Positions 1-7,405 of a stretch of 7,405 nucleotides of DNA are shown here, in pieces; the first letter of the stretch is position 1; the number at the start of each line of letters is the position of its first letter. Source of the stretch: Candidatus Methylomirabilis limnetica (lineage in GTDB: Bacteria; Methylomirabilota; Methylomirabilia; Methylomirabilales; Methylomirabilaceae); NCBI RefSeq assembly GCF_003044035.1, contig NZ_NVQC01000014.1:1-7405 (forward strand), written 5' to 3'. The position numbers and the translations under genes were made by a program. The notes under the pieces were generated by a model. That model made no database searches, was not told where the DNA came from, and worked only from the letters and a program-made list of their open reading frames with translations.

Positions 1-541
1 AGGCTCGGGTGTGGCCATCGAAGAACATCTCCTGTCGCTCGTACGGATAGGCCCGCACAAAGGGCATGCCCGAATAGCGCGATCGCATACAGAAGAGCTT
101 GACCTGCCGCTCCTCTCCTGCCATGCGGACCCAGGCAGCTCCCCAGTCGACTTCCGCCTCCTGCGCGAGCTCCGGGTCTAAGGGGATGACCGCTGTGACT
201 GTCGGCCATCCCAGCCGAGCCTTCTGCTCCCGCACCCATCGTCTAACTGTCGACTCCGCACCCGGAAAGGCATACTCTTCGACCAGTCGGGTCCAGATCC
301 GGTGCGCCGTGTGGCGATGCTTCTTGGGGGTCTCCTGATCCGTGCGGAGCCAGCCCTCGATGATGGCGGCGACCGAGTCCATCACCCGGGAGGCCGGTTC
401 GTGCCTCCTCCGGTACTTAGGCTCCCAGCCAGCTAGAACCTTGCGGATCGTTTTGCGTGTATGCCCAGTCTCCCGCGCGATCTGACGAATACTCTTCTGA
501 TACACCCGAGCGGCCGTCCTGATGAGCTCGTACTGATCCAT
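1..541 (-). CDS. istA: IS21-family transposase IstA, N-terminal ~180 aa (remainder lies beyond the left edge)
   Basis: Hand translation of the reverse complement from ATG (541..539) has no stop down to position 1. It reads MDQYELIRTAARVYQKSIRQIARETGHTRKTIRKVLAGWEPKYRRRHEPASRVMDSVAAIIEGWLRTDQETPKKHRHTAHRIWTRLVEEYAFPGAESTVRRWVREQKARLGWPTVTAVIPLDPELAQEAEVDWGAAWVRMAGEERQVKLFCMRSRYSGMPFVRAYPYERQEMFFDGHTRA. The N-terminal HTH, the 'HRHTA.RIW..L.EE..F.G..STV.R.V' block and the start of the catalytic core (EVDWG...) match the IS21 IstA pattern as I know it. It is missing from the ORF track only because it is open at the window edge. Confidence 0.85.
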   Translation of the reverse strand, partial: MDQYELIRTAARVYQKSIRQIARETGHTRKTIRKVLAGWEPKYRRRHEPASRVMDSVAAIIEGWLRTDQETPKKHRHTAHRIWTRLVEEYAFPGAESTVRRWVREQKARLGWPTVTAVIPLDPELAQEAEVDWGAAWVRMAGEERQVKLFCMRSRYSGMPFVRAYPYERQEMFFDGHTRA

Positions 542-613
542 CCCTAGCACTCCTCTCCCTCCCTGTCTCTGGTGTGGTCTTGCTCGAACACACGAGAAAC
601 AGCGAGCGTATCA

Positions 614-662: not shown

Positions 663-738
663 ACTCTAGCGAAATCAGAAGGCTGTTACACGTGGCCTCG
701 AAGAGCGCCCCACATTGAAAAAGACAGGCAATGTGTGG

Positions 739-1404
739 ATGAACGAGTTGCCCTTTACTTGGGAGTTGGTGAGCCTCAAACGAGTGTCAGAAATTCAGGG
801 CGGACTAACACTCGGCAAGGTATACGAAGGCCCACTCATCGAGCGGCCATATTTACGAGTTGCCAATGTCCAAGACGGGCACCTCAACCTGCAAGATGTA
901 ACAACCATTGAGGTGCCGGAGGAAGTCGCGCATCGTGTGGAGCTCCGCCCTGGGGACGTTCTGATGACCGAAGGTGGTGATCTTGACAAGCTTGGCAGGG
1001 GAACAGTTTGGAGCGGAGAGATCCCTAACTGCCTGCACCAGAACCACATCTTTGCAATCCGCTGCTTCAAGCATAAGCTGCTGTCGGCCTTTCTTGCCTA
1101 CCTGACTGCATCCCGATTCGGTCGCGATTATTTCGAGGCCACTGGAAAGCGAACAACCAACTTGGCTAGCACCAATTCGACAAAGGTCGGCCTGTTCCCA
1201 ATCCCGCGACCGTCAATTGAGGAGCAACGCGCGATTTGCAAATATCTCGACAATAAGCTCAATGACGTTACTCAGATCGTGAATGGCATTGAAGGCCAAA
1301 TTGCCACCCTCACTGCCTATCGCAAGTCGCTAATTCACGAATGCGTCACCGGCCAGCGGCGGATCGTGGAGGCGGACATCAACCGGGTCAAAACCCATGG
1401 CTAA
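739..1404 (+). CDS. hsdS: Type I restriction-modification specificity subunit HsdS, 5'-truncated: one target-recognition domain plus the C-terminal conserved helix (probable remnant or half-size S)
   Basis: The C-terminal LTAYRKSLIHECVTGQRRI is the conserved distal HsdS helix, and the TRD-like body includes YLRVANVQDG, GDVLMTEGGDLDKLGR and NHIFAIR. The frame is open from 670 upstream of any start codon and encodes RNQKAVTRGLEERPTLKKTGNVWMNELPFTWE. This looks like the central conserved region of a full-length two-TRD HsdS (AVTRGL....K.G..W...P..WE), so the gene is missing TRD1. Possible starts are TTG 715 (ORF track) or ATG 739. The stop TAA at 1402-1404 overlaps the hsdR ATG at 1397. Confidence 0.8.
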   Translation: MNELPFTWELVSLKRVSEIQGGLTLGKVYEGPLIERPYLRVANVQDGHLNLQDVTTIEVPEEVAHRVELRPGDVLMTEGGDLDKLGRGTVWSGEIPNCLHQNHIFAIRCFKHKLLSAFLAYLTASRFGRDYFEATGKRTTNLASTNSTKVGLFPIPRPSIEEQRAICKYLDNKLNDVTQIVNGIEGQIATLTAYRKSLIHECVTGQRRIVEADINRVKTHG

Positions 1405-4318
1405 GAAGAAGAAAGCCCTGGAGCTGACGTTTCAGCAGCACATTGCGGATTACCTCATCCGCGAGCACAAATATGGCGTGCTGGAGCAGTCCGACATCAC
1501 GGACAACGAGCACTTCATCGCGGAAGACCAGCTCTGGGCCTTCCTGAAAGCCAGTCAGGCTGACCAGCTGAAGAAGCTGGTGGACGATTACGGCACGGAC
1601 GCGCGGGAGGAAGTCTTCAAGGCACTGCGCAAGGAACTGGAGTACACGCCGCTATGGATGCTGTTCCGGCAGGGACTCAAAGTGCGCGGGCTGGAGTTCC
1701 GGCTCTTCTATCCCAAGCCGCGCTCCGCCGCGAGCGCCGCCGCTGCCAAGTATGCGGAGAACCGCATCACCTTCCGCCCCCACTTCTACTTCAGCGACGC
1801 GAATCACGAGATTGACTTCGTCTTCTACCTCAACGGCTTGCCCATCGTGGCGCTGGAGCTGAAGCACGAGGCCAACCAGAACGTCGAGCACGCCGTGGCG
1901 CAGTTTGTGGCCCGCGATCACACACATAAGATTTTCCAGCATCCCTTCCTCTATTTGGCTGTGGACACCTCGGAGGTGAAGGCTGCCACCGACCCGCACC
2001 GAGAGGAGAACTTCCGCTGGCACAACATGGGGCTGACCAACACGGCCACGAATGCCGCCGAGTACCCGGTCGAGTTCCTCTATCGCGAGGTGCTGTCGCA
2101 GGGGCAATTGCTGGAGGCGCTGTCGTTCTTCCTCGTCCGCGTGCCCGAGCGTGAAGCCGAGGACGACAAACCGGCGCGTCCGGCCTCCACGATCTTTCCG
2201 CGGTATCACCAAAGCCGACTGGTGCGGCGGGTGGCGGAGGACATCACGGCCCACTTCGCCACGGCGGGCGACATCGGCAAAAAGTATCTGGCCGACCATT
2301 CCGCCGGCAGCGGCAAGACGCTCTCCATCTGCTGGCTGGCCGACCGGTTGCACAGCCTCTTCAGGCCTGACACGAACGAGAAGCTGGTGGACATCACCTT
2401 CATCCTCACCGACCGCAAATCGCTCGACACGAACATCCGCGAGGACATCGACAAGTTCACCCACCTCAAGGATGTGGTGGGCATCGCGAAAAAAGCCGAC
2501 GACCTGCCGCGCTTCCTCAAGGAACGGAAATCGATCATTGTCACCACGCAGCAGAAGTTTGCCTGGGTGCTGGAGGAAATTCAGAAGAACCCGGAATTGA
2601 AGAAGCTGCGGGTGGCGTTCCTGATTGATGAAGCCCACCGCTCGCAGGAAGGCCAGATGGGCGCAGCCATCCGCCTGCCGTTCCGCAAGGAAGGCGAGCC
2701 GGACGAAGAAGCTCCCGATGAAGATCTCGAAGAGCAGATTGCCAAGGTCATCCGCGAGCACGACCTGAATCAGTTGTTCGTCGCCTTCACGGCCACACCG
2801 GCACCGGCCACCGTGTCGATGTTTGGCAAGCCGTTCGACAGCTACACCGAGGCGGAGGCCATCGCCGAGGGCTATATCGTGGACGTGGCGGCGAGCATTA
2901 TTTCCTACAAGACGCTCTATAACCTGCATTGCCCCATCGTCCCGCAGCCGGACGAGGAGAAGCTCTACCCCAAGGGCGTCGTGTCCAAGGCGCTCCAGAA
3001 CGTGGCGTTTCAGGACGACGGGCTGATCCAGTACAAGGCGGAGGTGATGCTGCGCATCTTCGAGAAGGATGTAAAGCCGCTCATCGGTGGACGTGCCAAG
3101 GCGATGATCGTCACCTCGTCCCGCGTGGCCGGGCTGCGGTATTTCAACATCATCAAGGAGAAGCTCAAGGAGCGCGGTGCCGACTACAAGGTGCTCTATG
3201 CGTTCTCTGATTTCGTTCATCCGGAGACGAACGAAGCAATCAGCGAATACGCCGTGAATGAGCTGCAGCCAGCCGAACTGATCGAGAACCGGTTCGAGGG
3301 CGACGACTACCGGATCATGGTCGTCGCGAACAAATTTCAGACCGGCTTCGACCAGCCCTTGCTCGCGGGAATGTTCCTCGACAAGCCGGTGCTGGATCGC
3401 AACGCCGTGCAGACGGTTTCGCGACTGAACCGCTGCTACCATGGCAAGAAGGATGTCGTAGTGGTCGACTTCACCAACAACGCGAAACAAATACTCAAAG
3501 CCTTTGCGAAGTATCGGAAGGGGACGCCGTTCGAGCCAGAGGAACCGGATCAAGAGACCTCCCCAAAGCTGCACACGGAGATTCTCGCTACGGGGGTCTT
3601 CACCCAGAAGGACGCCGCCGACGTGCTCGCGCTGCTCAGGAGCGGGACGGATGCGCAGGTGCAATTCCAGGTGAACGCCTTGCGGATGCGCTTTCAAGCG
3701 AAGCTCACCGGTTGGGAAGACCGCAAGGCGTTCGTCTATCTGCTGGCCCGCTTCGTGAAAAGTTTCCATTTCCTCGCCTGCTTCTTCACTTACTCGCCGC
3801 AGATTCAGGAGTTCGTCACCTTCGCTGAATGGGTCGGCCCGCAGCTCATCAAGGTCGGAACCGTATCCGACCTGATGAAGCAGATTCGCGCCACCGTGGT
3901 CACCAAGGTGGCGGTGCAGTATCAGGGCGTAACGACCAGCGGTGGCCCGGTGAAGCTACAGCCGGGCAAAGGAAAAGGCGGCGCAGGCCCGGTGCCAGTG
4001 AAGTCATCCGTGCAAGACATGATCGCGCAAATTCTCGCCAAACATCAAATCACCGACGAGGAAGCGCTCTACATCAAACAGGTGACGGAGGAGAAGATCG
4101 CCGACCCGGCCATCCGCACCACCGTCCAGGCGCACCGCGACGACCGCATGTATCTCGAAGGACCGTATCGCGGACAGGTCAACGGCGACATTCAGGAGAC
4201 CTACGATGCACGCGCGCGTTACGACGAACTCGCCGACCCGAAATACACCGACACCGGCGGCATCTTCGACATTATGGCCGTGACGGTTATTCAAACCCAT
4301 TTGTCCCTCGCTGCCTGA
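1397..4318 (+). CDS. hsdR: Type I restriction enzyme R subunit (HsdR), 973 aa
   Basis: N-terminal PD-(D/E)xK nuclease motif IDFVFYLNGLPIVALELKHE (D at ~1814, ELK at ~1856-1864). SF2 helicase motifs are present: Q-motif YHQSRLV, motif I HSAGSGKTLS (~2303-2320), motif II LIDEAHRSQ (~2621-2647), motif III FTATP, FQTGFDQPLL, and motif VI QTVSRLNR. The 8-nt overlap with hsdS (ATGGCTAA) suggests translational coupling. Confidence 0.88.
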   Translation: MAKKKKALELTFQQHIADYLIREHKYGVLEQSDITDNEHFIAEDQLWAFLKASQADQLKKLVDDYGTDAREEVFKALRKELEYTPLWMLFRQGLKVRGLEFRLFYPKPRSAASAAAAKYAENRITFRPHFYFSDANHEIDFVFYLNGLPIVALELKHEANQNVEHAVAQFVARDHTHKIFQHPFLYLAVDTSEVKAATDPHREENFRWHNMGLTNTATNAAEYPVEFLYREVLSQGQLLEALSFFLVRVPEREAEDDKPARPASTIFPRYHQSRLVRRVAEDITAHFATAGDIGKKYLADHSAGSGKTLSICWLADRLHSLFRPDTNEKLVDITFILTDRKSLDTNIREDIDKFTHLKDVVGIAKKADDLPRFLKERKSIIVTTQQKFAWVLEEIQKNPELKKLRVAFLIDEAHRSQEGQMGAAIRLPFRKEGEPDEEAPDEDLEEQIAKVIREHDLNQLFVAFTATPAPATVSMFGKPFDSYTEAEAIAEGYIVDVAASIISYKTLYNLHCPIVPQPDEEKLYPKGVVSKALQNVAFQDDGLIQYKAEVMLRIFEKDVKPLIGGRAKAMIVTSSRVAGLRYFNIIKEKLKERGADYKVLYAFSDFVHPETNEAISEYAVNELQPAELIENRFEGDDYRIMVVANKFQTGFDQPLLAGMFLDKPVLDRNAVQTVSRLNRCYHGKKDVVVVDFTNNAKQILKAFAKYRKGTPFEPEEPDQETSPKLHTEILATGVFTQKDAADVLALLRSGTDAQVQFQVNALRMRFQAKLTGWEDRKAFVYLLARFVKSFHFLACFFTYSPQIQEFVTFAEWVGPQLIKVGTVSDLMKQIRATVVTKVAVQYQGVTTSGGPVKLQPGKGKGGAGPVPVKSSVQDMIAQILAKHQITDEEALYIKQVTEEKIADPAIRTTVQAHRDDRMYLEGPYRGQVNGDIQETYDARARYDELADPKYTDTGGIFDIMAVTVIQTHLSLAA

Positions 4319-4322
4319 GGCC

Positions 4323-4985
4323 ATGAGCAAGACGATTCACGACATCCCCGAAGCCGACCGACCGCGCGAGAAGCTCCTGCGCAAAGGTGCGGCTGCACTG
4401 AGCGACCAGGAACTGCTTGCCGTGCTCCTCGGCAAAGGCACACCCGGTATGGACGTCATGACGCTGGCCTCCAAGCTGGCGCGACTCATTGACGAGAAGG
4501 GACTGGCCGTGAAGGCCGAGGATCTCTCGCAGTTTGCGGGCGTCGGTGACGCCAAGGCGACCTTGATCCTCGCGGCCATCGAGTTCGCCCGCCGCCGCAT
4601 CAAACCGGAAGGCGCGAAGATCGTGACCCCTGCCGACTTGCTGCCGCACGTCCGCCATTACGCCGACCGCAAGCAAGAGCATTTCCTATGCGCCAGCATC
4701 AACGGTGCCAACGAGATTCTGAACATCCGCGTGGTGTCCATTGGACTCATAGACCGCAGCCCCGTGCATCCGCGTGAAGTCTTCGCCGATGCCCTCTCCG
4801 ACCGCGCCTCCGCCGTCATCGTCGCCCACAATCACCCGAGCGGGGGGCTCGGACCATCGCCCAGCGACATCGCCATCACCGCACAACTCAAGGCGGCAGG
4901 TGCAGTCGTTGGCATTGAGTTGCTTGATCACATCATCTTCAACAGGACCGGATACTTCAGTTTTCTTGAAGAGGGCAAGCTGTAG
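4323..4985 (+). CDS. radC: RadC-family JAB/JAMM domain protein (UPF0758), 220 aa
   Basis: The N-terminal helix-hairpin-helix region has the typical LSDQELLAVLLGKG signature. The C-terminal JAMM motif is complete: E (HPREVF) ... HNHPSG (from ~4827) ... SPSD. The gene starts 4 nt after the hsdR TGA (4316-4318). Confidence 0.9.
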   Translation: MSKTIHDIPEADRPREKLLRKGAAALSDQELLAVLLGKGTPGMDVMTLASKLARLIDEKGLAVKAEDLSQFAGVGDAKATLILAAIEFARRRIKPEGAKIVTPADLLPHVRHYADRKQEHFLCASINGANEILNIRVVSIGLIDRSPVHPREVFADALSDRASAVIVAHNHPSGGLGPSPSDIAITAQLKAAGAVVGIELLDHIIFNRTGYFSFLEEGKL

Positions 4986-5017
4986 GGCGATCTGATGTCG
5001 CGCATATCAGCAGGGGC

Positions 5018-5072
5018 GCCTAACAACAGCATGCAGCTGACGGCGCTGCGCGCCGCAGCTGATGCTGGGCGT
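5018..5072 (+). repeat. Imperfect inverted repeat / long hairpin forming the 5' exon flank of the intron. It is attC-like once joined to 5815..5819, and could alternatively act as the radC terminator stem.
   Basis: GCCTAAC (5018-5024, fits RYYYAAC) is followed by spacer AAC. The stem is AGCAT(G)CAGCTG(A)CGGCGC (5028-5046), loop TGC, then GCGCCGCAGCTGATGCT (5050-5066). That gives 17 bp with two extrahelical bases, G5033 and A5040. Spacer GGGC follows, then GT (5071-5072). There is no downstream T-tract. Confidence 0.6.
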
Positions 5073-5740
5073 GTGTGCCGGGCATGGCACAGAACTGACG
5101 GGGTGCAAGTCCCCGTGCCAGGTTTAAGCAGAGCCGAAGGCTAGGAGAAGGGCAAGGGCGTCATCGTGAGGTGGGGTCCGAAGGAAGCCCAATCCAAAAG
5201 TGCGGGGCGACGAACAGGAACCGGATAGGGGGTGTGGTACGCTCGGGACGAGCGGGCACGTGACCGCGAAGTCCTCCATCTGCGATTGGGGCGTGCTTTA
5301 TAAATCCGGCGTCTACGCATGGAAAGCTCTGTGTCTTACCCCGGGAGGCCTGCACGGTGTCTACGGGAGTGATAGGGTATGCGCCTAGTGAGTCCTACGA
5401 ACGTGGAAACCCTGAAACAAGGTATGGCGAAACCTAAGTCACCCTGTTTGGACTGAGAGGGGAGCAATCCACTTTGACCGTCGTGCAGGAGTCAGCAGAG
5501 GGCATAGTAGGTACGAGGCAGGCGAGGCTAGTGAGGCACTCCAGAGCCGAAAGGCGGAGAAACAGATAGGCCAAGCCGCAACGTCTTGTACTGAAGGCCC
5601 GAACGGTTGAAAGGGTCAGTAAGCCCTGTGCCCAGTGTGCATAAAGCTGGCGGAAACGTCACTGCTCGAAAGAGCGATGTGCATGGTGGATAGAGGAGTC
5701 CGAACACCCGGTCGGCAGTCTTGCCGAAGTAATCAACCGA

Positions 5741-5774
5741 ACCGCCGTGGTACGTGATCCGTATGCCCGGTGGT
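5741..5774 (+). other. Group II intron domain V (34 nt) with CGC catalytic triad
   Basis: The sequence is ACCGCCGUGGUACGUGAUCCGUAUGCCCGGUGGU. The lower helix ACCGCCG.G pairs with C.CGGUGGU and includes the G.U wobble in the middle of CGC (5743-5745), as in IIC introns. The upper helix is (G)UACG/CGUA(U). The apical loop is not a canonical GNRA and the bulge is 1-2 nt, so the exact pairing needs computation. Confidence 0.75.
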
Positions 5775-5776
5775 GT

Positions 5777-5814
5777 GGGAGGGGGGAGGCCGTGAGGCCC
5801 CTCCCTATCCCGAT
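5777..5814 (+). other. Group II intron domain VI with GUGA tetraloop, bulged branch-point A5807, and 3' splice-site AU
   Basis: GGGAGGGGGGAGGCC (5777-5791), loop GUGA (5792-5795), then GGCCCCUCCCU-A-UCCC (5796-5811). A5807 is unpaired between A5780-U5806 and G5779.U5808. Seven nucleotides (UCCCGAU) follow it to the intron end at 5814, which is the canonical branch-site spacing. Confidence 0.75.
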
Positions 5815-5856
5815 TAGCCGCACTAATCATTTGTAAACACAAGGAAGGCGCCGCCA

Positions 5857-6837
5857 ATGCTTGAAATTAGCAACTGCAACAATATTGATAGCGGGAAAAT
5901 CAGCATTGAGAAGCTGAAGCTGAACATCAAATACGCGATGAACGGAATCGGTAAGAGTACCATTGCGCGTGCCATTGAGCTTCAATTACGAGGCGACGGA
6001 AGCATCAAGGAACTAACGCCTTTTAAGCTGCAGGAATCCGGAGTGGAAGACCAGCAGCCGCAAGTTGCGGGCCTTGATGATGTTAAGAGCGTCAAAGTTT
6101 TTAACGACGACTACATCAACCAATTCGCCTTCAAGCAGGACGAAGTGCTGGCCAATAGCTTTGAGATATTTATCAAAACCGCGGATTACGAAAAGCAGAT
6201 CAATGCAATCGAAGGGATCATCGCAAACATAAAGGAAACGTTCCGAGACTCAGAAGAGATTAACCAGGTCATTTCAGATCTAGCGACTCTCAGCGACAGT
6301 TTTGGAAAATCAAAATCAGGCTACTCTGAAGCAAGCGCTCTAGCGAAAGGAATCGGCAAGGGGAACAAAGTTTCCAACATTCCAGCGGGCCTGGAAAGTT
6401 ATACCGCATATCTGCAGAGCCCACAGAATTCAAAGTGGCTGAAGTGGCTTATGGACGGCAACACCTATTCGAGTCTGTCCGACAATTGCCCATACTGCAC
6501 TTCGCCGACGAAAGACAAGAAGGATGTCATATCGAAAGTGAGCAAGGAATTCGATGCGAAATCGATAGAGCATCTCAATAAAATAATTGCAGTACTCGAC
6601 AGTTTGGGGAAATATTTTTCAAAAGATGCCAATGAAAAGTTGCGCGCACTGACAAACAATATAAAAGGCCTTTCAAAAGAGCAGCTCAGCTACCTCGTCC
6701 GGATAAAGGACCAAGCAGATACGCTGAGATGGAGAATGGTCAACCTGAAGGGCATGACTTATTTCTCCATGAAAGATGCGGGGGAGGTTTCCGATTTCGG
6801 TCCTTCCGGAACGAGTGTGGGTGACCACAACCGGTAG
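5857..6837 (+). CDS. P-loop ATPase N-terminal fragment (AAA_13 / ABC-like, RloC/PrrC-like architecture suspected); native sequence ends ~6778 and the last ~19 codons are read-through into the ISL3 end
   Basis: Walker A in the typical AAA_13 context is LNIKYAMNGIGKSTIARAI (NGIGKST = 5941-5961). It is followed by a long helical, coiled-coil-like region and a CPYC motif (6487-6498) reminiscent of a zinc hook. No Walker B or signature motif appears before the stop, whereas related full-length proteins are, to my knowledge, about twice this size. The RBS AAGGAAGG (5841-5848) precedes the ATG at 5857. The gene is visibly AT-rich compared with its neighbours. Confidence 0.6.
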   Translation: MLEISNCNNIDSGKISIEKLKLNIKYAMNGIGKSTIARAIELQLRGDGSIKELTPFKLQESGVEDQQPQVAGLDDVKSVKVFNDDYINQFAFKQDEVLANSFEIFIKTADYEKQINAIEGIIANIKETFRDSEEINQVISDLATLSDSFGKSKSGYSEASALAKGIGKGNKVSNIPAGLESYTAYLQSPQNSKWLKWLMDGNTYSSLSDNCPYCTSPTKDKKDVISKVSKEFDAKSIEHLNKIIAVLDSLGKYFSKDANEKLRALTNNIKGLSKEQLSYLVRIKDQADTLRWRMVNLKGMTYFSMKDAGEVSDFGPSGTSVGDHNR

Positions 6838-7405
6838 TGGCTGGGTAAGGATGGATATTCGACATCAGGGAGCGATCCGACGAGACTCTTCTAGGGTCGA
6901 AGAGGAGACTGCGGCATGGAAGACAGGCTGTTGTATGCGAAGTTGCTTGGCATCGAGTTCCCGTGGCTGATCAGCAGAGTTCAAGTGGATATGCCGGCGG
7001 AGCGCATCGACGTTTGGGTCGAGGAGGCGTCGGGAGCGCGCTTTGCGTGCGCGGTGTGCCAACAGGACGCGCCGGTGTACGACCACACGCCGGAGCAAGC
7101 ATGGCGACATCTGGATACCTGCCAATGTCGAACCTACGTTCATGCAAGTCTGCCGCGAACCAATTGCCCCAAGGACGGGGTCAAGCAGGTTCGATCTCCG
7201 TGGGCGGAACCGAGGTCGCAGTTCACGCGGTTGTTTGAGATGCGAATGATCGACACGCTCAAGGAATGTGACGTGACGGGTGTGACGCGACTTACGGGAA
7301 CCTCGTGGGACGAGACCTGGGGCGTGATGATGCGTGCGGTCGACCGCGGACTGGCGCGGAAAGACCGGCGCGTGCCGGCGCGCATCGGCATTGACGAGAA
7401 GTCGG
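6780..7405 (+). mobile_element. ISL3-family insertion sequence, left end (boundary approximate, 6775..6790); continues beyond the right edge
   Basis: Composition switches abruptly from AT-rich ATPase coding sequence to GC-rich sequence at ~6778-6785 (…TTCTCCATGAAAGATGCG|GGGGAGGTTTCCGATTTCGG…). An ISL3 transposase gene begins about 135 nt downstream, which is the usual layout for this family. The inverted repeat was not verified. Confidence 0.6.
6916..7405 (+). CDS. ISL3-family transposase, N-terminal ~163 aa (runs off the right edge)
   Basis: Hand translation from ATG 6916 (RBS AGGAG at 6902-6906, in-frame TAG at 6892-6894 upstream) has no stop to 7405. It reads MEDRLLYAKLLGIEFPWLISRVQVDMPAERIDVWVEEASGARFACAVCQQDAPVYDHTPEQAWRHLDTCQCRTYVHASLPRTNCPKDGVKQVRSPWAEPRSQFTRLFEMRMIDTLKECDVTGVTRLTGTSWDETWGVMMRAVDRGLARKDRRVPARIGIDEKS. 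The N-terminal zinc-finger layout (C.VC....YDH....WRHLD......L...PR..CP..GV.QV..PWA...S.FT..FE) and the IGIDE motif are characteristic of ISL3 transposases. Confidence 0.85.
   Translation, partial: MEDRLLYAKLLGIEFPWLISRVQVDMPAERIDVWVEEASGARFACAVCQQDAPVYDHTPEQAWRHLDTCQCRTYVHASLPRTNCPKDGVKQVRSPWAEPRSQFTRLFEMRMIDTLKECDVTGVTRLTGTSWDETWGVMMRAVDRGLARKDRRVPARIGIDEKS

Follow-up and report, generated by a model that had tools for sequence, protein, structure and literature searches.

The window analyzed here, a 7,405-nt stretch comprising positions 1 to 7,405 of contig NZ_NVQC01000014.1 from Candidatus Methylomirabilis limnetica, carries a group IIC intron within a genuine integron recombination site (attC). 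On the plus strand, a truncated hsdS fragment (715-1404), hsdR (1397-4318) and radC (4323-4985), all assigned by Pfam and NCBIfam matches, form a type I restriction-modification (R-M)/radC block (715-4985) that ends at a 55-nt palindromic element (5018-5072), the 5′ part of the attC. The intron follows immediately on the same strand (5073-5814), with the remainder of the attC on its far side. The next gene encodes an AAA_13 ATPase (PF13166; 5857-6837, plus strand) and starts 42 nt past the attC core, with a short leader between. GC content changes from 0.60-0.62 in hsdR and radC to 0.454 in the AAA_13 gene, and the break falls at the attC. The segment is bounded by two different insertion sequence (IS) elements (in the regions 1-640 and 6790-7405), which truncate hsdS and the AAA_13 gene. 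The left one holds an istA fragment of the IS21 family (1-547, minus strand, reading leftwards from 547), and the right one, which removes the 3′ end of the AAA_13 gene, encodes an ISL3-family transposase (from 6916). The same DNA was met once elsewhere, on a 6.2-kb ENA metagenome contig, ERZ4201063 NODE_11687, and an exact look-up of RadC gave no match beyond that contig. The matching metagenome contig, L001 (an L with a number labels a retrieved genome locus or metagenome contig), stops near the inner edges of both IS elements.

We consider it very likely that this arrangement represents a real attC split at GT|T by a top-strand IIC intron that has lost its open reading frame (ORF) and retains an intact ribozyme. 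The comparisons below establish the identity of the attC, the splice junction, the lineage and strand of the intron, its exon-binding site 1 (EBS1) and the loss of its ORF.

Removal of nucleotides 5073-5814 rebuilds a 60-nt element (5018-5072 plus 5815-5819) with the order GCCTAAC-AAC-stem-GGGC-GTTAGCC, a length inside the range of about 57-141 nt used here for attC sites. The R″ box, or inverse core (5018-5024, plus strand), fits RYYYAAC at all seven positions and is followed by AA, as in attC top strands. The R′ core GTTAGCC fits GTTRRRY at six of seven positions and pairs with R″ at six of seven. Its first two bases (GT, 5071-5072) end the 5′ exon and the rest (TAGCC, 5815-5819) lies behind the intron, such that the next cassette would begin TTAGCC. 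Between the boxes lies an imperfect stem-loop (the L″/L′ region, 5027-5067) with a TGC loop (5047-5049) and two single-base extrahelical bulges, G5033 and A5040, both on the 5′ arm. Unpaired spacers (AA(C), 5025-5027; GGC, 5068-5070) separate the stem from the boxes. A first-pass annotation, made from the sequence alone, had described the element in these terms, and its positions and sequences for R″, bulges, loop, GT, intron and TAGCC are all correct, as are its length and heptamer fits. Its imperfect, bulged stem also stands, but the count of 17 pairs becomes 18 because C5027-G5067 pairs as well.

Several computational tests support the attC assignment. The spliced 60-mer folds as DNA with −23.5 kcal/mol (z = −4.7), and none of 200 shuffled sequences was as stable. 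A rule-based attC scan, which demands that two heptamers pair, that one hairpin encloses the site and that bulges be more numerous on the 5′ arm, finds this site and no other in the spliced window, zero sites in the unspliced window and two matches in 408 kb of shuffled DNA. The strict form of the scan (RYYYAAC) gave few sites in flanking DNA, and a relaxed version served for arrays. Across 18 aligned sites, 13 of the 18 stem pairs show compensatory change on both sides, and 87-90% of cells are paired in the proposed structure versus 28-40% when the partner is slid. Part of these 18 sites had been chosen by a fold-based scan, which favors pairing but not compensatory change.

Covariance models were built for the 56-63-nt attC class (alignments A3 and A4), since a MAFFT alignment of 56-84-nt attCs (A1) was too ragged for a model. 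The score of the first model, R1, is not independent because its training included the window site. It also matched attC(qacL), which is nearly the same sequence as attC(aadA1) and thus no independent positive control. We therefore relied on a second model, R2, trained on attC(aadA1), attC(qacL), attCs from Marinobacter, Halomonas and other genomes, and 58-59-nt attCs from the same metagenome arrays, with zero sites of the window's attC type. R2 scores the interrupted window site at 48.4 bits (E = 1.5e-9), its sole match in the window, in a stand-in for the covariance check that the first-pass annotation had proposed. Intact sites of the same type score 56-69 bits, E values for the type range from about 1e-9 to 1e-14, and four non-integron control loci yield zero matches.

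The nearest familiar counterpart is attC(aadA1) (GTCTAAC...GTTAGAT), which is also 60 nt long and aligns with the window element ungapped, with 38 of 60 positions identical. Both have bulges at positions 16 and 23, loops of 3 nt, compensated changes in the stem, an R″ of the form xxCTAAC followed by AA, and an R′ of the form GTTAGxx. The window attC differs in two extra pairs, which leave shorter unpaired spacers of about 3 and 3-4 nt, and in its first bulged base, which is G (bottom-strand C) rather than the C (bottom-strand G) of attC(aadA1). Judged from its sequence, the rebuilt 60-mer is an authentic integron attC in top-strand orientation, belonging to a widespread and highly conserved type.

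The breadth of this type emerged from a scan of metagenome contigs with the 37-nt stem core GCATGCAGCTGACGGCGCTNCGCGCCGCAGCTGATGC, which occurs exactly in at least 120 contigs (L077-L196; for example L085:4679-4738 and L163:2126-2185). Among these listed contigs, similarity begins at R″ (RYYYAAC) and stops at R′ (GTTRRRY), and the flanks differ on both sides, such that the window's attC type bounds more than 100 different cassettes. None of the 120 has an intron inside the site. In 117 intron-less sites, the most common R″ is GCCTAAC (39 sites), and GTCTAAC occurs 24 times; R′ varies (GTTAGGC, GTTATGC, GTTAGAC), with exact GTTAGCC in 7 of the 117. At the position of the intron these sites read NCGT-TAGNC. 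Two or more same-strand attC-like sites at cassette spacing are present in 50 of the 120 contigs, and these arrays hold 186 attC-like sites versus 19 in shuffled sequence. A divergent intI lies upstream in L163, L108 and L085, with integrases 48-58% identical to IntI1. The proposal that the element is an attC carrying a IIC intron at GT|T is thus supported by the architecture shared with attC(aadA1), the range of cassettes, the neighboring intI genes and the covariance match.

Two of the retrieved contigs carry radC with an intact-length attC of the window's type behind it and no intron. One, L087, is an intron-less homologue with the order hsdS-hsdR-radC-attC, 77% identical to window positions 1314-5072, and scores 62.7 bits with R2. 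The gap between hsdR and radC is 4 nt in the window, and L087 has the same arrangement. Similarity to L087 ends at 5072, where the contig goes on with TAGCCG (it reads ...CGTTAGCCG / ...GATGCTGGCCGTTAGCCG). The other, L088 (668-5130), has a fused N6-methylase/specificity gene, a gap of 21 nt, radC and the attC, whose R′ is degenerate and has decayed; a ThsB-TIR gene comes next. The radC-attC unit is therefore followed by three different sequences, namely AAA_13 in the window, unrelated DNA in L087 and ThsB-TIR in L088, and the change falls exactly at R′ in L087 and from the R′ position onward in L088. Such an exchange of neighbors is what cassette recombination predicts, in agreement with the implication drawn in the first-pass annotation. 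The locus probably is or was part of an integron array, and the activity of an integron here can be proposed from these sequences. As a separate observation, the defense-type genes encountered (R-M, AAA_13, ThsB-TIR) appear as multi-gene units bounded by attC sites.

Empty sites also set the intron boundaries at GT|T. In addition to L087, which fixes the junction and is an intron-less homologue of the kind suggested for comparison, L108 is 97.8% identical over 3 kb to the Arhodomonas locus L012, and this identity ends exactly at ...TGGGCGT. Past ...GGGCGT, L012 continues with the intron and L108 with TGAGG. The exons flanking a related intron on plasmid pR148 join to give the known attC(aadA1)/3′ conserved segment (3′-CS) sequence AAGCGT|TAGATG. 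An intron start at 5071, which had been raised as a way to abolish the second heptamer, was considered and rejected, as it would leave GGGC|TAGCC, unlike every empty site; the GTTAGCC heptamer stands. A residual ambiguity of 1 nt stems from the T on both sides of the junction. The 3′ exon TAGCCGCACTAATCA (5815-5838, TAGCCGCACTAATCATTTG) resembles the start of the class 1 3′-CS, TAGATGCACTAAGCA (TAGATGCACTAAGCACATA, L002:7866-7890), at 13 of 18 positions. Co-transfer of flanking DNA was rejected as the source of this likeness, given that L087 and other sites share only extended R-box bases of the GTTAGCCG type; the resemblance probably reflects an extended R-box consensus or chance.

The intron itself spans 742 nt, from GUGUG to GAU, and is identified by Rfam matches and by 88% identity to full-length relatives. 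The Rfam model group-II-D1D4-3 reaches 124 bits over 5160-5334, and D1D4-1 reaches 36 bits. Intron_gpII, which covers domains V and VI (D5 and D6; 5740-5814), scores 27 bits, under its gathering score of 40, and ends exactly at 5814. Folding and an alignment of 15 relatives place D5 (34 nt, with a CGC triad) at 5741-5774 and D6 (with a bulged branch-point A5807) at 5776-5812, both on the plus strand, and both differ from the relatives by compensated changes. A CGC triad in domain V marks class C. The other features used to define the class are also found, namely six domains, a 5′ GUGYG, a 3′ AY, a 34-nt D5 and a bulged A in D6. The attC hairpin ends 5 nt ahead of the intron site.

The one class C hallmark that is lacking is the intron-encoded protein (IEP), a reverse transcriptase (RT)/maturase without an endonuclease domain, because the ORF is absent. 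Among the relatives, copies of 1984 nt (for example L049) are nearest, and the window intron is 88% identical to them over intron positions 1-535 and 89% identical over the last 82 nt. Their 452-aa IEP ORF (positions 569-1927) is missing from the window intron. In its place is a domain IV filler of about 125 nt (5608-5732, plus strand) that has no similarity to the full-length relatives in a blastn comparison with L049, and tblastn for the IEP across the window gave no match. Full-length relatives encode proteins of 444-452 aa annotated as group II RT/maturase.

Loss of the ORF is not confined to this copy. Other ORF-less or shortened introns were found in L024 (663 nt), L019 (685 nt), L046 (692 nt), L020 (852 nt), L042 (866 nt) and L032 (893 nt), so that several independent examples exist among roughly 35 copies with a placeable 3′ end. 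Since the deletion points differ between copies, the ORF was lost several times in the lineage. Two further truncated copies were noted, L041 with about 1451 nt and L012 with about 1258 nt, the latter with a doubtful 3′ end call. The copies in L076 (intron start at about 2148) and L059 (about 368) seem to break off approximately 130-150 nt past the 5′ end, and in L076 another attC (GCCTAACAACAGCG..., 2342-2417) lies about 200 nt past the intron start. These broken copies suggest that arrays undergo deletion or recombination at the introns they contain. More distant ORF-less or IS-disrupted IIC copies occur on rhizobial plasmids (L004:2470-2930 and L005:2500-3045); they share domain IV sequence with the window (GGCTAGTGAGGCACTCCA...GAAAGGCGGAG) and sit after ordinary short hairpins (CCCGCGTCAGCGGGTTAGTT|GTGTG), not attC sites.

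A scan with a 28-mer from domain I (D1) against one genome per species returned 70 loci of this lineage, with hosts that include Marinobacter, Halomonas, Arhodomonas, Aquisalimonas, Thermoanaerobaculia and a deltaproteobacterial metagenome-assembled genome with at least 8 copies. Most 5′ exons are attC top strands of 56-111 nt, in which AA follows xxYTAAC, the 5′ arm carries bulges and the end has the form ...GCGT|TRRRY. Some copies, for example L061, L069 and L071, sit at sites without attC features. In L030, L018 and L068 a divergent intI upstream indicates that the intron is co-directional with the cassettes. The window intron likewise lies in the top strand, co-directional with radC and AAA_13.

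Exon ends and a loop in D1 point to the basis of this orientation. The 66 copies with a 5′ flank end their 5′ exons in GCGT (45), ACGT (12), TCGT (5), CCGT (3) or ATGT (1), so that CGU is kept in 65 of 66, opposite an invariant ACGU loop, and the introns begin GTGTG. The 3′ exons that could be placed start with T, which corresponds to intron-binding site 3 (IBS3; T5815 in the window), followed by AG, AT, CG or GG, with the doubtful end call of L012 as sole exception. In the window, IBS1 is (G)CGU, at the very end of the 5′ exon (5069-5072, plus strand), and the D1 hairpin GCGG-GCACGUGA-CCGC (5252-5267, plus strand) bears EBS1, ACGU (5258-5261). The loop GGCACGTGAC is invariant in the lineage and its stem covaries (GCGG/CCGC, GCTG/CAGC, GTGG/CCAC, GTTG/CAAC). 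ACGU pairs with (G/A)CGU; in 57 of 66 copies G or A occupies the fourth position, which fits a U as its partner. The first-pass annotation had offered two EBS1 candidates; ACGU at 5258-5261 is retained by virtue of the invariant loop, and ACGC at 5239-5242 is discarded, as it varies (ACAT, ACAC, ACAG) among copies with the same IBS1.

Introns inserted in the opposite strand carry a different loop. The introns known as IIC-attC (S.ma.I2, Kl.pn.I3) occupy TTGT|T sites in the bottom strand and run counter to the cassettes (PMC3001079, PMC7923331). One such Kl.pn.I3-like intron on pIMP-DS1516 (L197) is antisense to blaIMP-4, has the exons ...GCTTTGT| and |TAGAAAT, and bears the loop GGCACAAGAC at the same place, with ACAA opposite the TTGU exon end. 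The change of this loop between lineages supports the EBS1 assignment and explains the choice of strand.

The window intron shares a class C ribozyme, a folded attC strand as upstream stem-loop, insertion at GT|T and a split attC with these IIC-attC introns, from which it differs in strand (top, sense), exon end (GCGT|T) and EBS1 (ACGU rather than ACAA). Its closest plasmid-borne counterpart is the intron of the class 1 integrons on pR148 and pOXA436, which occupies the top strand of attC(aadA1/aadA2) in the cassette direction, as in the window. The two are about 80% identical over D1 (window 5035-5360) and share the loop GGCACGTGAC and the junction ...GCGT|GTGTG...CCCGAT|TAG... in GTTRRRY. 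The plasmid copies encode a 444-aa RT/maturase and come from clinical class 1 integrons, whereas the window copy lacks the ORF, derives from an environmental assembly and lies behind R-M/radC genes. An intron from E. cloacae (2012) is a top-strand precedent, as cited in PMC7923331, and may be the intron seen in pR148. Introns of the B.h.I1 type also use a stem-loop, an IBS1 of 3-4 bp, a one-base IBS3 and no IBS2, and have an IEP without an endonuclease domain, as do the full-length relatives of the window intron (PMC4424553, PMC7923331), but their stem-loop is an intrinsic terminator rather than an attC. The ORF-less bacterial introns of Simon et al. 2008, as summarized in PMC4424553, have retained the ribozyme and lost the IEP, as in the window, and both they and the window lineage have full-length relatives that might supply the protein in trans. 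The literature calls such introns rare, unlike the several independent cases in the window lineage. In sum, the window intron is a known kind of association in a rarer, same-direction form.

Other accounts of the locus fare less well. The palindrome could be a terminator-like or repetitive extragenic palindrome (REP)-like hairpin behind radC, serving the intron as a generic stem-loop, with the likeness to attC a coincidence. IIC introns usually insert behind terminator hairpins (PMC4424553), and the few lineage copies at sites lacking attC features (L061, L069, L071) would suit this idea. However, no T run follows the stem, where the spliced sequence reads GGCGTTAGCCGCACTAATC, a terminator scan makes no call at the hairpin, and the element, bounded by RYYYAAC and GTTRRRY, recurs after more than 100 unrelated genes, in arrays and beside intI, with the architecture of attC(aadA1) and covariance E values of 1e-9 to 1e-14. 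Because the T run is missing and the element is common to unrelated genes, we reject the terminator-like hairpin, which had been proposed as an alternative at the outset and to which we give almost no credence. It is slightly less implausible, yet still very improbable, that the attC was brought in by the intron through homologous recombination of an intron copy in an attC with another copy behind radC, as an intermediate of cassette genesis. Intron-mediated cassette genesis (Leon and Roy) has been proposed for IIC-attC introns, as cited in PMC7923331, and L012 and L108, which share a 5′ flank and not a 3′ flank, fit a rearrangement at intron copies. Against this, the intron-less L087 already has radC with a complete attC, and L088 has radC with the same attC type and no intron. 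Moreover, nearly all of a top-strand attC lies in the 5′ exon and would travel with radC, not with the intron.

The proposal that the window intron belongs to the classical lineage of S.ma.I2 and Kl.pn.I3-like introns gains from its class C ribozyme at GT|T of GTTRRRY, where a folded attC strand has its 3′ end, and from the IEPs of its full-length relatives, which are about 46-48% identical to the protein of the intron in attC(blaIMP-4) (46.5% for pR148 versus L197). Those introns insert in the bottom strand, against the cassettes, at TTGT|T (PMC3001079, PMC7923331), as L197 does with EBS1 ACAA, whereas the window intron is sense, in the top strand, with IBS1 GCGU paired to EBS1 ACGU. We regard this assignment as improbable, and of the subclass membership first suggested, the IIC intron at GT|T of an attC holds and the S.ma.I2-type lineage does not, given the top strand and the (G/A)CGT|T site. 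The most serious competitor, although still doubtful, is that the intron is a dead fossil which, having lost its ORF, neither splices nor moves and merely disrupts the attC and the transcript. No IEP is present within the window, and the locus is in decay: two IS elements have inserted, and hsdS and AAA_13 are truncated. Bacterial group II introns that lack an ORF are rare, are considered short-lived and usually exist alongside related introns whose protein may help in trans (PMC4424553). Contrary to decay of the ribozyme, D1-D3 as well as D5 and D6 remain intact at 88-89% identity to the full-length copies, the last two domains showing compensatory changes, and the recurrence of independent ORF-less copies of 663-893 nt suggests persistence, possibly with help in trans.

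We favor the reading of a real attC interrupted by an ORF-less IIC ribozyme, against which several points must be set. Neither an intI nor a second attC, both of which the first-pass annotation had suggested seeking, was found within the 7.4-kb window by attC scan, tblastn or covariance model, so that an integron at this locus can be deduced only from other contigs; the window is also cut by IS21-family and ISL3-family elements. A multi-gene R-M and radC unit spanning several kb is larger than cassettes usually are, and the window does not reveal where it begins upstream. The covariance models are home-built stand-ins for those of IntegronFinder, and part of their training sites came from our own structural scan. 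The usual first extrahelical base in an attC is a bottom-strand G; here it is G in the top strand (5033; column 17 of alignment A3) and thus C in the recombining bottom strand, although a top-strand G at this place is typical of the window's attC type. Finally, splicing and mobility are predictions from the sequence, and the genome has no known source of an IEP.

In our model, the IIC intron would have reverse-spliced into the top strand of the attC between GT and T of the R′ core GTTAGCC, with the attC hairpin serving as the upstream stem-loop that IIC introns require. The site would be recognized through an IBS1-EBS1 pairing of 3-4 bp, (G)CGU with ACGU at 5258-5261, plus IBS3 (U5815), and the window intron belongs to a lineage aimed at attC top strands, in the cassette direction. 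Because the RT/maturase ORF was lost, efficient splicing and further movement would need a related protein in trans. The attC crossover point is G|TT. Recombination by IntI at this attC should be blocked, and the two units locked together, because R′ is cut off and the intron lies one base from the crossover. Splicing of a sense, read-through transcript would give back continuous RNA.

A wider interpretation, which we put forward tentatively and consider rather less likely to hold than not, is that sense-strand attC-specific IIC introns constitute a widespread environmental lineage in which a two-base change of EBS1, from ACAA to ACGU, matches the other strand of the same site. This lineage would repeatedly yield ORF-less mini-introns of about 660-890 nt that act as non-autonomous retroelements, freezing cassette boundaries, in this window those between units of defense genes, and remaining invisible in RNA through their removal from the sense transcript by splicing. 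What may be new is how widely the sense-strand lineage occurs in the environment, its switch of EBS1 and the recurrence of ORF-less copies.

The findings extend known biology and leave the understanding of these systems unchanged. They provide a clean, junction-defined case of a ribozyme-only group II intron within an integron recombination site, and indicate that same-direction targeting of attC, rarely reported, is common in environmental integrons and not a one-off of clinical plasmids. The EBS1 loop (ACGU here, ACAA in bottom-strand introns) offers a straightforward molecular explanation of which strand is chosen. The type I R-M/radC, AAA_13 and ThsB-TIR genes, bounded by one attC type, fit the view that integron arrays stock defense genes. 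Within such arrays, insertions of this kind may fix the order of cassettes, as the interrupted attC should be disabled.

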